Virus record (IMG/VR): IMGVR_UViG_2778261301_000001
Location: 1-10,710 of that record
DNA length: 10,710 nucleotides
Origin: a virus
Lineage: Duplodnaviria > Heunggongvirae > Uroviricota > Caudoviricetes
Strand: one strand, 5' to 3'
In this document: positions 1 through 10,710 of the stretch, piece after piece
Numbering within the stretch: the first letter of the stretch is position 1
How the letters are laid out: every line of letters begins with the position of its first letter
The notes under the pieces: generated by a model
The model's database searches: none
What the model saw: only the letters and a program-made list of their open reading frames with translations
What the model was told of the DNA's origin: nothing
Program-made: the position numbers and the translations under genes

Positions 1-77
1 GAAAAACGAGTATTTTTAGTCATCCTGTTTACCTCTTTCTCAGGAAGTTTAGTCTCCAGGATTCCCGGGGCGGTTCA
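1..77 (-). mobile_element. Left terminus (IRL plus first codons of orfA) of an IS3-family element, IS629/IS1203/IS3411-like; the element body lies off-window to the left
   Basis: Positions 1-77 are the exact reverse complement of 10634-10710. On the minus strand the sequence reads TGAACCGCCCCGGGAATCCTGGAGACTAAACTTCCTGAGAAAGAGGTAAACAGG then ATG ACT AAA AAT ACT CGT TTT (MTKNTRF), matching the IS3-family TG terminus and the recalled IS629 OrfA N-terminus. The repeat ends exactly at 77/78. Confidence 0.75.
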
Positions 78-2106
78 CTGCTTTGTCATCGATGTTTCTG
101 GCTTGAGCCAGTTTATAGACAGTGTTTGCCTGACTCTCCATCGCATCCTGCTGGGCAGTAAATGCTTTGATTTGAGTTTGAGCAGTTTCGTTAGTTGCTT
201 TTTGCGCTTCTGCCTGCGCTGCTACCATTTGCGCCTGAGCGAGAACCATTTCAGGATTTGGCTGGCTTTGTGCTGCCATTTGCGCCTGTTGAACAATCTG
301 CTGCTCTTTCTCATTGCGTGGTTTTGCAATACCAGATATCAGCAGTTGGTTTCGGTTGTACTCTTTGAAGTCATCAAGGCCTTCGCCATCGATATTGTCC
401 AGAATAATACCCTGAATTGCCGGGCGCATTGGGTCTGTTGGAAGCATAGAGCTAAGGACATTTGTCAGTACAGAAACCGTTGCATCACGTCGTGCTGTGT
501 AGCTTGGTCCAACATCAACCGTCACATCGTATCGACCGACAGAAAGGTCATTTAACGCAACAACAGCCCCTGTTTGCCTGTCAACAACCTGTGCGCTCAG
601 GACAGCGATATCATCACTTCCATCTTCGTTAACGATGCGCACTTCACGTTCTGAACCGTACACTTCACGCGCCATTGACAGCCATACTTCACCAGCGCGT
701 TTAAGACTTTTCGCCATATTGTCCAGATAGATAAACGAAGCCATATCTGCTCTGTTCATCAAGTTGTTAACCGTTTCCTGAGCAATATTACTTGGCATCT
801 GCTGCATGGCCTGACTGCCGCCTGTAACCTCCTGAATATCTGCACTGGTTTGCTGTAGTAATGCAGCCAATGCCTGATTCATAACCGCAGGCTGTGTATA
901 TCCTGCCGGGGTAGCTCCAGCGATGATGTTGCCAGATTTATCTCTCACTTCGCGCAACGGCAAGAACGCTGGTCGTTTCTTGTTGCGAGCCTCCCAGTGC
1001 TTCTCAAGTCCACGTATTTGCTCCATGCCAACTATAGGGATCTGACCTGGGTCTTGCGCTGCAGTATCAGCCAGCATTGATACCTGAAGGTTGTACAAAC
1101 GCTGTGGATCCATTGCTTTTGCAATATGTCCTTCGACACGCTCAATGTCATCAATGAACCAGCGTTTTCCATAAACCGGGATGAGGGGGATATGCTCACC
1201 AGGAATACGTCGAGGTTTCTCAAGGAAACCATCACCATCCACTACGGATACATACACACGACGGCGCTTCACTGAGCGCCTTGCCACTTCCTGAAATCCA
1301 GCTATTGCCAGTTCATCTTCAATATCTTCGACCTGATCACTGTCGTATGTTGCAATCTCTCCAGTGATTGGATGACGATAACTGATAACGTCAACAGACT
1401 CTTTACGAACTTCGTAATACTTCGCTATGTAAATAACATCTGCATCAAACCAGTCATATTCCCAACTGGTCATAGACGTTACATCCAGAGAAGCAGGAGG
1501 TTTCTTTCCGTATTCAGCCTCATATTTTTCAGGTGACAACGAATACATGCAGAACGCCCACAACGCGTCAGATTTGTCGTACTTCTTAGCGTCAGGGTCA
1601 AACCACACAGAGCGCGACGGGTCGTATATTGGTTCAATAGCAATACGCTGACGATCGTCCATGGGGTCGTATTCATTGACCAGCATCGACGTCAAACGGA
1701 AGCAACCGAAACCACCAGTAGCAGCGTCGTCAAATGCATTATCGCAAGCCTCACCGCCATCAGTTTCTTCGTAGTCAGCACGGAACAGACCATTTAATTT
1801 ATTAGCTAACTCTTCGCTTGCCTCTCTGTCACCAGGACGAAACTTAACTGTGATTCTGTTATTGCGGTATTCTGCAATGATGCGGTTAAGTTCAGTTGCT
1901 ACCTTGTTGATTTCAAACTTAGGATACTTCTCGAACTGCTCATCAAGCTTAGTTCCAGCCGCCGTTGCTCCTTCCCATTGACCTCCGGGGACACGAGCAA
2001 ACCTCGTAGCTTCAATGCACTTTTCGCGCACTTCCTGCTGTGGAGAATAGGCGCGGTCAAACCTGAGCATGATCCGCTCATGTTTTTTCTCTAATGTCTC
2101 TGCCAT
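49..2106 (-). CDS. Phage portal protein (P22/Sf6 gp1/gp3 family), 3' end truncated and fused to IS sequence
   Basis: About 685 aa from the ATG at 2106-2104 (the ORF track's TTG at 2115 is less likely). Long collinear similarity to the recalled P22 portal, e.g. FYEV..., KRRRVY, GEHIP(L/I)(I/V)PV(Y/F)G, NMRADM. The last ~9 codons (..NRPGNPGD, stop at 49-51) lie inside the IS terminus at 1-77. Confidence 0.88.
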   Translation of the reverse strand: MAETLEKKHERIMLRFDRAYSPQQEVREKCIEATRFARVPGGQWEGATAAGTKLDEQFEKYPKFEINKVATELNRIIAEYRNNRITVKFRPGDREASEELANKLNGLFRADYEETDGGEACDNAFDDAATGGFGCFRLTSMLVNEYDPMDDRQRIAIEPIYDPSRSVWFDPDAKKYDKSDALWAFCMYSLSPEKYEAEYGKKPPASLDVTSMTSWEYDWFDADVIYIAKYYEVRKESVDVISYRHPITGEIATYDSDQVEDIEDELAIAGFQEVARRSVKRRRVYVSVVDGDGFLEKPRRIPGEHIPLIPVYGKRWFIDDIERVEGHIAKAMDPQRLYNLQVSMLADTAAQDPGQIPIVGMEQIRGLEKHWEARNKKRPAFLPLREVRDKSGNIIAGATPAGYTQPAVMNQALAALLQQTSADIQEVTGGSQAMQQMPSNIAQETVNNLMNRADMASFIYLDNMAKSLKRAGEVWLSMAREVYGSEREVRIVNEDGSDDIAVLSAQVVDRQTGAVVALNDLSVGRYDVTVDVGPSYTARRDATVSVLTNVLSSMLPTDPMRPAIQGIILDNIDGEGLDDFKEYNRNQLLISGIAKPRNEKEQQIVQQAQMAAQSQPNPEMVLAQAQMVAAQAEAQKATNETAQTQIKAFTAQQDAMESQANTVYKLAQARNIDDKAVNRPGNPGD

Positions 2107-2108
2107 GT

Positions 2109-3521
2109 TTACCAACCGGAGGATGAGGGAACGTATATTTCAGTTTCTTCGCGGACCAATGCCGGGCAATGCATACACATCATCAGCGCATCAGCCAGGT
2201 TAGGAGATGGAATACCGAGCTTCTGCTTCATTTCGACCTTAGTCATTAGCTCCAGCTTCCCGTTTTTATTGAATTTGCGCTGAATCTGCGTCAGTTCTGC
2301 AAACAGCTTCTCCAGCATCTTCTCGCCTATCGCTTCTTTGTCGAAACTCAGCATGTCGTCGGGGTCTGCATACTCACCGTGAACAACCGCCCGATATGTC
2401 AGATACAGCCTGTCAGCCAGCGCGTAATAGAATTGCGCTCGCTTATTGCGAAATACATCGCCAATAGTGCGAACGTTGTCGCCCTGTACTACTTCATCAG
2501 CCCATGCTCCGGCCTGATACGGCGCATCTTCATCGAATGGCGATTCGCTGCCCTTGAACATCGTGGCGGTGATTTTCTTGCCGGAGAACGCTTCCGTTGT
2601 CTGTCTGCGTAGCCCGGCACCAACACCATCACCATCCCACAGGTAATGGTCAGCGCCGTCTTCAATCGCCAGCGAAGTAGCCCAGTCAGCACCTTCATTG
2701 ATGTCCATCAGCAGGCCTTCGGCAATGCGCTTAACTACCGAACCGTGGCGCGATGCATAACCTTTAGCATCTGGCCCTGTATCTGATGGGTCATGCGCAG
2801 AGACAACAGCGCCTTTCGCTTTCCATCCGAGTTTCTTGTGCGCATCGGTTGCAGCTTCAAGCCATTCACGTTTGATGATTGCCATATCACTTGCGCTCAC
2901 TGGCTCACCAAGCCAGATGTGACGATACAGTGTCGGATTTCTGCGTTTACACTCTTCCATCTCCAGACGGAGAACTTCAGGAAAGTGCGGGTTGTCTGTA
3001 TAGTTCACCGTCAGCAGACAAATATCATCGGGAGGATTTACAACGAATCGCTGATAGGTATCGTCGAGAATGTTCTTAGGGTTGAAGCTCACCCATATTT
3101 CGGAAAACGGCTTGCGGATGGTTGGTATCAGGATATCCCATGATTCCTTCGTTACCGCTTCCGCTTCTTCCACCCAGCAGATATCAATGCCTTCGAGCGA
3201 TTTAATCTTCGTCGGGTTGTTTTTTATGCCGTAGAACATGAATTCAGCATTCGTTCCGAGATGACGAATCATTGAACGCTGAATTTCAAACTCAGCCGAA
3301 TACCCTTCCCGCTCGATGGTGTCTTCAAGCAACCGGATTACCGAATCGCTGATGCTGTTTTGCAGTTCACGAGCGCAGAGAATACGCACAGGCTGCCGAC
3401 GCGCCGCTTCAACAAGAAGCCTCGCAATTGCCCATGACTTACCGCTACCTCGACCGCCTTTGGCGACTTTGTAGCGATGCGCCTCAATAAACGGTTCAAA
3501 GATAGGATTAATCGAGGTCAT
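2109..3521 (-). CDS. terL: Terminase large subunit (Sf6 gp2-like; ATPase plus nuclease)
   Basis: 470-aa ORF with an N-terminal Walker A motif (VAKGGRGSGKSWA) and a Walker B-like ICWVEEAE. It sits directly upstream of the portal with a 2-nt spacer, and its length and sequence match the recalled Sf6 TerL. Confidence 0.93.
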   Translation of the reverse strand: MTSINPIFEPFIEAHRYKVAKGGRGSGKSWAIARLLVEAARRQPVRILCARELQNSISDSVIRLLEDTIEREGYSAEFEIQRSMIRHLGTNAEFMFYGIKNNPTKIKSLEGIDICWVEEAEAVTKESWDILIPTIRKPFSEIWVSFNPKNILDDTYQRFVVNPPDDICLLTVNYTDNPHFPEVLRLEMEECKRRNPTLYRHIWLGEPVSASDMAIIKREWLEAATDAHKKLGWKAKGAVVSAHDPSDTGPDAKGYASRHGSVVKRIAEGLLMDINEGADWATSLAIEDGADHYLWDGDGVGAGLRRQTTEAFSGKKITATMFKGSESPFDEDAPYQAGAWADEVVQGDNVRTIGDVFRNKRAQFYYALADRLYLTYRAVVHGEYADPDDMLSFDKEAIGEKMLEKLFAELTQIQRKFNKNGKLELMTKVEMKQKLGIPSPNLADALMMCMHCPALVREETEIYVPSSSGW

Positions 3522-3943
3522 TTTCCGAATAGAGTGCTCATCGGTGATGTTTCAATCTGGATTGCGCCGCCGTCCTTACCGACAAGCTCGTTAGTTACCT
3601 TGTCGCCATACTTACGGGGATTCATTCTGGCCAGCGCCCATTTGCGGGTATCAACGCGAAGTCTTGCCTTTGCCACCTCGGCGGCATCAGGGATTACGTC
3701 GTCAGCAATTTCGAATATCTCTTCGAAAATAGAGTCGGCCCGAGTCTCTGTTGCCTTCGCGTACTGGTCACGAAACTCCTGATGTTCAGCCAGCCAGCGA
3801 AAAACTGATGTTTTGCTCGGCATTCCTGGGCGTTCGCAAACTTTGCGCAGACTCTCGCCGGAGGAAAGCAATGCGCAAATGTCATTAGCCACCTCCGGCA
3901 TATAATCAGAGGGGCGACCACCTTTCTTTTTCTCAGTCGCCAT
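3518..3943 (-). CDS. terS: Terminase small subunit (Sf6 gp1-like)
   Basis: 141-aa ORF whose TGA overlaps the terL ATG (ATGA). The N-terminus MATEKKKGGRPSDYMPEVANDICALL... matches the recalled Sf6 small terminase, and a GAAGGGA Shine-Dalgarno lies upstream. Confidence 0.85.
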   Translation of the reverse strand: MATEKKKGGRPSDYMPEVANDICALLSSGESLRKVCERPGMPSKTSVFRWLAEHQEFRDQYAKATETRADSIFEEIFEIADDVIPDAAEVAKARLRVDTRKWALARMNPRKYGDKVTNELVGKDGGAIQIETSPMSTLFGK

Positions 3944-4022
3944 ATTGATTATTTCCCTTCTGCTTGCTTATCCCATTCATCGCGGAATTTGGATGGGTTG
4001 TCGAAACCTTGAGTTGCCATGT

Positions 4023-4265
4023 TTACGCTCCGGTAGTGAACAGGTCTAACGCTTCCTTCGATTTACGCACCGCTTCGAATGTGCGGATCGTGATATCCGA
4101 ATTAGCGCCGCCTGACTGGAAGTGAATTTTAAATAGCTCAAGCTTCAGCTCGTCAGTGCCAATGAATTGAAATGCTTCTTCTGCGGCTGCGTTCTGGTTC
4201 ATGACCAGTTTGTAAATCTCTAACTGGAATTTCTGTTCTTCAGTCATGGGAATAATCTCTGCCAT
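4023..4265 (-). CDS. Hypothetical small protein (80 aa) upstream of terS
   Basis: Clean ORF with a GGAG Shine-Dalgarno 7 nt upstream of the ATG at 4265-4263, same strand and operon context as the terminase genes. No family recognised. Confidence 0.55.
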   Translation of the reverse strand: MAEIIPMTEEQKFQLEIYKLVMNQNAAAEEAFQFIGTDELKLELFKIHFQSGGANSDITIRTFEAVRKSKEALDLFTTGA

Positions 4266-4281
4266 TGTTGGCTCCGTTTAT

Positions 4282-4312
4282 CCGTTAAAAGGGATATCAG
4301 TTAAGTTATCCC
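4282..4312 (-). terminator. Candidate intrinsic terminator (weak) between the moron and the 80-aa gene
   Basis: Inverted repeat GGGATA..TATCCC at 4291-4312 (6-bp stem, 10-nt loop), followed on the minus strand by TTTTAACGG (plus 4282-4290). Confidence 0.3.
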
Positions 4313-4574
4313 GTGCAGGGTATAAGCCATTGTCGAGACCACTCATTGAATGGTCTCTGCAATAACCGATGTCTTTCCATCAGTCCGCCACCACAAAGAA
4401 TCTTTTTTGCCATAAGGCAGGAGGTTCATCTTTCAGTGGCTGCCAGTTTATTTCCCCACTTTCTGGCTTGGGTTGTTTCGCTGTACTGCCGTTAATTGGT
4501 GAGTCCGGGGATTATTTCAGTTCGTTACCAGGCATTTCTTTTAGCTCTTTCAAATGACAACGATTGAGGCTAAA

Positions 4575-4997
4575 TCACTCCCCGTGCGACCTATAGTTGT
4601 AATATTTTTGGTGCAATTTGGTTTCAAGCTCTCTATCGGCAGGAATCTTTGCAATTAGATTTAGCTTCCCACCACTCATGCGAGATATCTCTGAAATTCG
4701 TTTATTAACCCTGCGACTAAACCCTATTTTTGTTAGCCCACTATCTTCAGCATGCAGAACGTACACATATGATTTTTGCGAAGCACTGGGTGCGACTTTG
4801 TTGTAATTAATCATGTCAAACATAAAGCCTTGCTTTAGCAAAGTTTCAAAAAAGATAGAATTAACACACCCATTCCTTCTCAGCTCTGCACTTAGCTTGT
4901 CAATTTCCTCTATGATGTCGCCAGACCCCTTTCCACTTATAAGAAAATCTTGGTACATGCGACCAATTCTTGAGGTAATTTCAACAAAGTTATTCAT
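4575..4997 (-). CDS. Moron-encoded protein with a C-terminal T5orf172 / MUG113 (GIY-YIG-like) domain; ends at an in-frame TGA where the family's conserved Trp is expected
   Basis: 140 aa from the first ATG (4997-4995), with AAAGG about 10 nt upstream. The C-terminal half reads SYVYVLHAEDSGLTKIGFSRRVNKRISEISRM...ELETKLHQKYYNYRSHGE-stop-F, matching the T5orf172 pattern (YVYVL, KIG, R..EIS, E..LH, GEWF). The region is locally AT-rich compared with the flanking phage genes. The ORF track's 221-aa version begins at a TTG and is probably over-extended. Confidence 0.65.
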   Translation of the reverse strand: MNNFVEITSRIGRMYQDFLISGKGSGDIIEEIDKLSAELRRNGCVNSIFFETLLKQGFMFDMINYNKVAPSASQKSYVYVLHAEDSGLTKIGFSRRVNKRISEISRMSGGKLNLIAKIPADRELETKLHQKYYNYRSHGE

Positions 4998-5135
4998 AGC
5001 GTCTTTACCTTTTAGAAAGTGAGCCTGTCTCACAGAAAAGCCGCCCGAGAGAGGTCGCCACCTATAACGGCATTTCTCAGGCTCGCTTACTGAAAGGCTC
5101 TCGTTAATATGCGCGTGAGATGCGCTGTGAAATTC

Positions 5136-9701: not shown

Positions 9702-9874
9702 TTCCTCGCACGATGTCTTAGCCACCGGATATCCCACAGGTGAGCCGTGTAGTTGAAGGTTTTTACATCAGATTCTTTTGGGATTGGCTTGCGTTTATTT
9801 CTGGAGCGTTTCGTTGGAAGGTATTTGCAGTTTTCGCAGATGATGTCGGTGAAACTTCGTCGCTGTCGCCTCAT
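9698..9874 (-). CDS. ninE: NinE-like protein
   Basis: 58-aa ORF not in the ORF track: [58 protein letters not shown], closely resembling recalled lambda NinE. ATGA overlap with the ninB stop. Confidence 0.75.
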
Positions 9875-10281
9875 TCGTACCTCCTGTCGGTAAATCTGAC
9901 ACCCTGACCAATAGCCCAGGCTGTTGTGTACTCAATCAGACTTGCCATACGCTTCACACTCATCTGCGCGCTGCTTTCGCGAATGTTGACGTATTCGCCT
10001 TCAAGCCCGGGCAAAACATCAGCTTCCTGCTTTGTTGCCACTGCATGACCGCTGATCAACAAAACCTTCCATTGTTCTGGTTTTAACCATTTATCGCGCC
10101 ACTGAACTTGCCTAGCGATATCCGCCAGCATCGCGTGAAATTTTGCGTTCTGGTCAAGGTTGCGCTTGTAGTCAGTAATGCGGATGGTGACTGGCTTGTC
10201 TTTATCGAGTGGTGTTGCGAGGATGGCGTTGATTGCGGCTTGCTGTTGTTGCTTAGTTCGGAGGAAGATTGTTTGCTTCAT
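9871..10281 (-). CDS. ninB: NinB-family protein (Orf-like recombination mediator)
   Basis: 136 aa from the internal ATG at 10281 ([20 protein letters not shown]...), with AAGGAG 6 nt upstream. Resembles recalled lambda NinB (LDQN(R/A)K, QV.W...WL..E.WK). The ORF track's upstream extension is unlikely. Confidence 0.8.
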
Positions 10282-10283
10282 CG

Positions 10284-10472
10284 TTACTCCTTCACTTTGA
10301 CTCCGGCGGTGCGAACTGCGGCCATCCAAGCCCTGTATCTCTTGTTTATTTCAACTCGTTTATACACAATCACGCCCAAAATATTCTTGCTTCTCATTTG
10401 TCGAATGAAGCAAGCGGAGACACCAAGTTCATCAGCGCACCAATCTTCAAATCTCTCTAAGTTATCGTCCAT
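10284..10472 (-). CDS. Small hypothetical protein, possible HTH regulator (Ren/NinA position)
   Basis: 62 aa from the first ATG (10472): MDDNLERFEDWCADELGVSACFIRQMRSKNILGV... Its stop lies within the ninB ribosome-binding site and the upstream stop is 1 nt from its ATG. Family not recognised. Confidence 0.45.
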   Translation of the reverse strand: MDDNLERFEDWCADELGVSACFIRQMRSKNILGVIVYKRVEINKRYRAWMAAVRTAGVKVKE

Positions 10473-10473
10473 A

Positions 10474-10633
10474 TCAATCACCGTTAATCGTTTCACTCAC
10501 GAATCTGACAAAACCAGCCATGTTTATTTGCATGAGTTTTTTCAACACCTTGTCTCGTCGGCTACGTTTTGGTTTTGGCCTGTGGTTGAATCTTTCACAA
10601 ACTGGAAGGCTTGATGATTTCCAGTACCTATTA
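10474..10633 (-). pseudogene. 3' remnant (51 codons) of a phage gene interrupted by the right-hand IS insertion
   Basis: The minus-strand frame is open from the IS junction (10633) to a TGA at 10474-10476: ..NRYWKSSSLPVCERFNHRPKPKRSRRDKVLKKLMQINMAGFVRFVSETINGD*. There is no upstream start within phage DNA, and the stop is 1 nt from the next gene's ATG. The parent gene is unknown (replication-region position). Confidence 0.4.
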
Positions 10634-10710
10634 TGAACCGCCCCGGGAATCCTGGAGACTAAACTTCCTGAGAAAGAGGTAAACAGGATGACTAAAAATA
10701 CTCGTTTTTC
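10634..10710 (+). mobile_element. Left terminus (IRL plus first codons of orfA) of a second IS629-like IS3-family copy, inverted relative to the copy at 1-77; body off-window to the right
   Basis: TGAACCGCCCCGGGAATCCTGGAGACTAAACTTCCTGAGAAAGAGGTAAACAGG then ATGACTAAAAATACTCGTTTTTC (orfA start at 10688). Exact reverse complement of 1-77. Confidence 0.75.

Follow-up and report, generated by a model that had tools for sequence, protein, structure and literature searches.

Organization of the locus

The DNA analysed here (the window, 10,710 nt) is the entire draft contig NOMP01000078.1 (assembly GCA_002518645.1), in which a 10.5-kb phage segment containing nin genes, Q, lysis genes, terminase and a truncated portal gene, with the phage genes on the minus strand, lies between two identical 77-nt IS629 left ends in inverted orientation. 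The features around the two junctions are listed in Table 1. With ninB located two genes downstream of the gene remnant that adjoins the right-hand IS end, the remnant is therefore placed at the head of the nin region.

Table 1. Features of the window at and near the IS629 junctions.
Feature	Position	Strand	Remarks
IS629 left end, second copy	1..77	-	Exact reverse complement of 10634-10710; adjoins the truncated portal gene
ninB (recombination protein NinB)	9871..10281	-	Pfam PF05772; annotated in L001 at 4353..4763
Hypothetical 62-aa gene	10284..10472	-	Annotated in L001, L002 and L003 at 4162..4350; also called on the contig
DUF7301-family 3' remnant	10474..10633	-	Orphan nucleotide of codon 19, codons 20-71 and TGA
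IS629 (IS3 family) left inverted-repeat end	10634..10710	+	Terminal 77 nt, 'TGAACCGCCCCGGGAATCC...'

At the right-hand junction, the IS end read on the minus strand ('...CCCGGGGCGGTTCA') finishes at position 10634 and 'TAATAGGTACTGG...' comes next, giving a phage/IS boundary at 10633|10634. A single orphan nucleotide, 10633, separates the IS end from the first complete codon of the remnant, and the minus strand then reads as 52 sense codons from 10632 to 10477 (translated as NRYWKSSSLPVCERFNHRPKPKRSRRDKVLKKLMQINMAGFVRFVSETINGD) followed by the stop TGA at 10476..10474, one spacer nucleotide at 10473 and the ATG of the 62-aa gene at 10472..10470. The sequence-only reading that preceded this analysis had described a 51-codon remnant spanning 10474-10640; the remnant itself and the coordinate 10474 hold, with the count corrected to 52 complete codons and the other end moved to the boundary given above, 10640 being 7 nt inside the IS. 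It was right to place the stop 1 nt from the next start codon. The resulting TGATATG occurs both in the window and in the relatives L001-L005, where it is kept even if the downstream gene differs, and in distant relatives overlaps of 4 nt and 29 nt take its place. Judged by this stop/start spacing, conserved in relatives, the remnant and the 62-aa gene would fit a translationally coupled pair. A weak Shine-Dalgarno-like motif (GGTGA) for the 62-aa gene lies within the last codons of the remnant. The product of the 62-aa gene stayed below the curated cut-offs of Pfam and NCBIfam and gave unconvincing results with PHROGs and PADLOC, with marginal matches only (E 0.055-0.23).

The 77 nt at 10634-10710 match at every position (77/77) the beginning of an element of 1310 bp in L006 (E. 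coli strain 405; 3330-4639), which is flanked there by a 3-bp ATC duplication and shares 99.5% identity with elements deposited as "IS3 family IS629". The ATG of the transposase orfA is at 10688 and the remainder of IS629 lies beyond the contig end. IS629 is known to generate target duplications of 3-4 bp, and in O157 strains 62% of its copies are located in prophages (PMC3271280).

At the opposite end of the contig, the P22-type portal gene (78-2106, minus strand) is cut by the other IS629 end, leaving 677 of its 708 codons with the last 31 missing; its frame extends 8 codons (NRPGNPGD*) into the IS, and the portal junction is ambiguous by 3 nt owing to the "TGA" at 75-77, common to the intact portal sequence and the IS end. 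As this second end is also cut by IS629 and the rest of the segment is an HK620-like late region, the whole contig looks like a decaying prophage. Separately, a 152-aa gene with T5orf172/MUG113 (GIY-YIG-like) Pfam matches is located between the lysis and small terminase genes (4575-5033, minus strand; the ORF listed for it extends to 5240) and has the look of a late-region "moron" (accessory insert).

Identity of the truncated gene

A megablast search with 10250-10633 returned a stretch of 100% identity in E. coli 2016C04-116 (H31; L001), uninterrupted in that strain, and the identity, complete from 10633 down to 10250, gives way precisely at the outermost nucleotide of the IS. The remnant corresponds to L001 4001-4160, within an intact gene, at 100% DNA identity. 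The sequence-only reading had proposed that the IS truncates the 5' end of a real phage gene, and this is confirmed by the position of the cut; it had also entertained the absence of any homolog ending in this peptide, and the intact L001 gene, 100% identical in its 3' part, is such a homolog. The loss of the 5' portion is likewise real. Its size is only 56 nt of coding sequence (18 codons + 2 nt) with the start codon and the Shine-Dalgarno site, rather than the bulk of a large gene.

In terms of coding capacity, mononucleotide shuffles of the remnant's 156 nt remained open in 2.4% of cases; across the gene-dense contig, 20% of 156-nt frames are open, so that openness alone is weak evidence. 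The remnant matched Pfam DUF7301 (PF23975) with 68.2 bits (E = 6.9e-19; curated gathering cut-off 27 bits) over profile positions 20-64 of 65, and PHROG 1785 with E = 6.4e-22 over positions 20-68 of 71. Compared with each of four relatives, the window showed 4 synonymous to 1 non-synonymous differences in the remnant frame. With respect to family membership, the match scores above the DUF7301 cut-off and falls short of a full-length member, i.e. one covering profile positions 1-65 from its own start. Because only profile positions 20-64 are present and no in-frame start is found upstream, the remnant is considered a partial pseudogene copy. On the contig the ORF bears the NCBI name "DUF7301 family protein, partial". 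The deposited partial protein is 78 aa long and extends to the contig edge; its residues 1-26 (EKRVFLVILFTSFSGSLVSRIPGAVH) are an antisense translation of IS629 and not DUF7301.

On the opposite strand, an ORF of 168 codons (10108..10614, plus strand) runs antisense to the remnant, to the 62-aa gene and to ninB, and it is present in L001 as well. Having no Pfam or PHROG match, it was not accepted as a gene; it is probably a shadow ORF.

The intact gene, its family and predicted structure

The intact gene has 71 codons, as in the Stx2 phages 1717 and WGPS6, where it is annotated as 216 nt and 71 aa ("similar to Orf-69 of ST64T"), and it spans 3945-4160 in L001, L002 and L003. An intact 71-aa homologue scored 108.6 bits against Pfam DUF7301 over profile positions 1-64. 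In four of five relatives an ATG with GAGGTGAAT ahead of it lies 56 nt before the breakpoint; in L001 the start at locus position 3945, at the same distance from the breakpoint, is a GTG rather than an ATG and is preceded by GGAGAGGTGAAT. Close homologues begin with MSTLADL and are mostly 71 aa long. A HMMER scan of 1.84 billion representative sequences recovered 39 relatives, almost all of 48-111 aa, nearly all of which align from their own N-terminus. In an alignment of 36 relatives (34-94% identity), T3, L7, D11, Y22, S26, L28, E32, P38, R45, D46 and V48 are conserved. A start giving 71 aa is supported by the family alignment as well as by the GAGG site. Automatic calls of the intact gene are inconsistent, with 60 aa from an internal ATG (3978) in L001 and L003, no call in L002 and 71 aa in the Stx phages.

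An AlphaFold model based on the 36-sequence alignment (pLDDT 88.9, pTM 0.59) contains helices at residues 3-25, 30-35 and 45-69, and DUF7301 is accordingly modelled as a small helical phage protein. Since helix 1 comprises residues 3-25 in this model, the cut takes away most of predicted helix 1, and the 19 missing N-terminal residues include three nearly invariant positions (T3, L7 and D11). Searches bearing on function were negative: NCBIfam and PADLOC profiles gave no match for DUF7301, the literature search turned up no paper naming the family, the DUF7301 profile found no relative among solved structures, and Foldseek searches with a single-sequence model (pLDDT 70) against BFVD and with the alignment-based model (pLDDT 88.9) against PDB returned only E values above 3.

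Genomic neighbourhood of DUF7301 in relatives

In intact prophages, about 270 nt separate the end of a DnaB-like helicase gene from the DUF7301 gene downstream of it, an interval that holds a terminator-like hairpin and one more small ORF (PHROG 21123). In L001 this type of ORF is an unannotated 60-aa frame at 3748-3930 (MNLDEQDAQ...) with a full-length match to PHROG 21123 (E = 5.9e-42). The DnaB-like helicase gene of L002 (strain IGC_RcoliRes_1.1, 1005-3470) is present as two pseudogene pieces about 1 kb apart, a further case of disruption in this part of the prophage.

Across the family, DUF7301 accompanies nin-region genes (phiTE_015, NinB, NinX) and not replication proteins. In distant relatives (L008 4720-5508, L010 318-1241), a phiTE_015-family gene (PF26207) regularly precedes DUF7301 with overlapping stop and start codons, and NinB or DUF7238 follows it. 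The L008 contig also encodes Rep3, RecA and a 5'-3' exonuclease and may represent a plasmid-like phage.

Coding status and expression of the remnant

The frame of the remnant stays open through the 77 IS nucleotides to the contig end and, when the full IS629 of L006 is joined to it, for about 30 codons into the element. The IS-derived part of the frame, examined over the full IS629 from L006, contains no ATG, GTG or TTG, and the first in-frame start is 85 nt inside the remnant; with no usable start codon, the remnant is therefore regarded as a pseudogene. On both strands of 10200-10710, no sigma-70-like promoter or terminator-like site was found, and the same interval gave no match to Rfam families. 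From these sequence features, expression of the remnant has probably been lost.

Interpretation of the junction

The remnant is almost certainly residues 20-71 of a 71-codon DUF7301/PHROG 1785 gene that was cut in codon 19 by IS629 and is now a pseudogene. Which gene is concerned, where exactly it is broken, the IS end and the lack of a start codon are direct observations, and no evidence contradicts the identification. In Escherichia and Salmonella prophages of the P22-like and lambdoid kinds, the intact gene has its place between the replicative-helicase gene and ninB. In the proposed course of events, transposition would have brought IS629 (IS3 family, 1310 bp) next to the gene within codon 19, either by simple insertion, which would have duplicated 3-4 bp, or by an IS-mediated deletion or rearrangement. 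The element now parts what is left of the gene from the start codon, the Shine-Dalgarno site (GAGG) and the first 19 residues. Unless there is read-through transcription across the IS, the downstream nin, Q and lysis genes would also have lost their connection to the phage early promoter.

Two readings give the remnant a different nature. One, which the sequence-only reading had also considered, takes the open frame as accidental and the stretch as non-coding spacer separating the IS from the nin genes; it draws on the proportion of open 156-nt frames in the contig and is extremely improbable in view of a Pfam match at E = 6.9e-19, a PHROG match at E = 6.4e-22, a family kept down to 34% identity and substitutions that are mainly synonymous; the long antisense ORF for its part has no family match. 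It is just as hard to credit the proposal, made in the sequence-only reading, that this was a replication-region gene, the remnant being the C-terminus of a replication protein (lambda P, DnaC-like or another helicase loader) mostly lost to the IS. Its argument is position only, upstream of the nin genes where lambda has O, P and ren. Against it, the intact gene stands alone at 71 aa at the head of the nin region, Pfam gives DUF7301 only, the helicase gene of intact relatives is a separate gene beyond the hairpin and the small ORF, and distant members adjoin phiTE_015, NinB and NinX genes. The similarity to lambda P, DnaC-like proteins or helicase loaders that this proposal called for did not materialize, as the remnant matched no replication-protein family in Pfam, NCBIfam or PHROGs.

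The remaining readings concern what followed the event, or how it came about. The ends of IS3-family elements form hybrid promoters in some cases. This general property, together with a frame that meets no stop between the junction and the contig end, nor over 30 codons of the full IS629, would favour continued expression of the remnant, as a fusion peptide begun in the IS or from a non-canonical start, or transcription from the IS that keeps the coupled 62-aa gene and the nin genes active; we consider this very unlikely, given the lack of ATG, GTG or TTG in the IS-derived frame and of a sigma-70-like site on either strand of 10200-10710, and a fusion would be without the conserved T3, L7 and D11 and most of helix 1. 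Similarly slim is the probability that the two inverted IS629 copies and the 10.5-kb segment form a composite transposable unit, or that an IS629 end drives a remnant fusion and expression of nin and Q; were this true, parts of a dead prophage would stay active. A far more serious candidate, if somewhat short of an even chance, is that a deletion or rearrangement mediated by IS629 left this junction as its scar, the genome having lost the replication and immunity genes upstream together with the 5' part of the gene. It is favoured by the other end of the segment, also cut by IS629 in the portal gene 31 codons before the stop, and by the appearance of the segment as what remains of a prophage between two inverted copies of IS629, but two independent simple insertions would yield exactly the same contig in a short-read assembly. 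This deletion is a version of the main explanation, truncation of a DUF7301 gene by IS629, and not a contradiction of it.

The two identical ends of the contig are probably the k = 77 repeat overlap left by the assembler, i.e. repeat-collapsed short-read ends, in which case the "two flanking ISs" would be two junctions to one collapsed repeat. The junction between IS and remnant is known from a single draft assembly: among 5426 complete E. coli genomes no place covered at least 80% of the query, and an exact 32-mer across the junction had no matches in collections of genome contigs and metagenome contigs. The missing 5' part of the gene is absent within the window. If the event was a simple insertion, a reciprocal junction '...ATGAGCACACTCGCAGACCTTATTCATGCCGATATGGCGGAAGATGGAGCAAGGCGTAA' followed by the IS629 right end 'TGAACCGCCCCGGGTTTCCTGGAGAG...' would be expected, with a 3-bp TAA duplication, the upstream piece of the gene reading '...GATGGAGCAAGGCG(TAA)' before the IS629 right end.

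Significance and comparison with known systems

The case is one of ordinary prophage decay and already known, NCBI annotating a partial gene, and its significance is small, IS629 insertions in E. coli prophages being common and well described (PMC3271280). The truncated copy adds nothing on the function of DUF7301, a conserved small nin-region protein. The practical points are minor and relate to the antisense IS629 start of the deposited protein and to the start calls of 60 versus 71 aa.

Prophages are the commonest location of IS629, for which the related names IS1203 and IS3411 exist; compared with known IS629 insertions in E. coli prophages, the breakpoint here falls exactly at the last nucleotide of the element, with only one end visible in the window. 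The lambda P/DnaC-type loaders roughly share the map position upstream of the nin region with the gene described here, but there is no sequence similarity, and the 71-codon gene is downstream of, and separate from, the replication genes. Compared with intact DUF7301 members, the remnant is without residues 1-19, a start codon and a Shine-Dalgarno site, and is a fragment rather than a functional member of the family. The closest parallels are the PF23975/PHROG 1785 examples Orf-69 of Salmonella phage ST64T and gp30 of the Stx2-converting phage 1717, the latter gene having 97% DNA identity to the remnant; DUF7301 genes of the 1717/ST64T type occupy the same place just upstream of the nin genes and have the same TGAnATG junction as the remnant.
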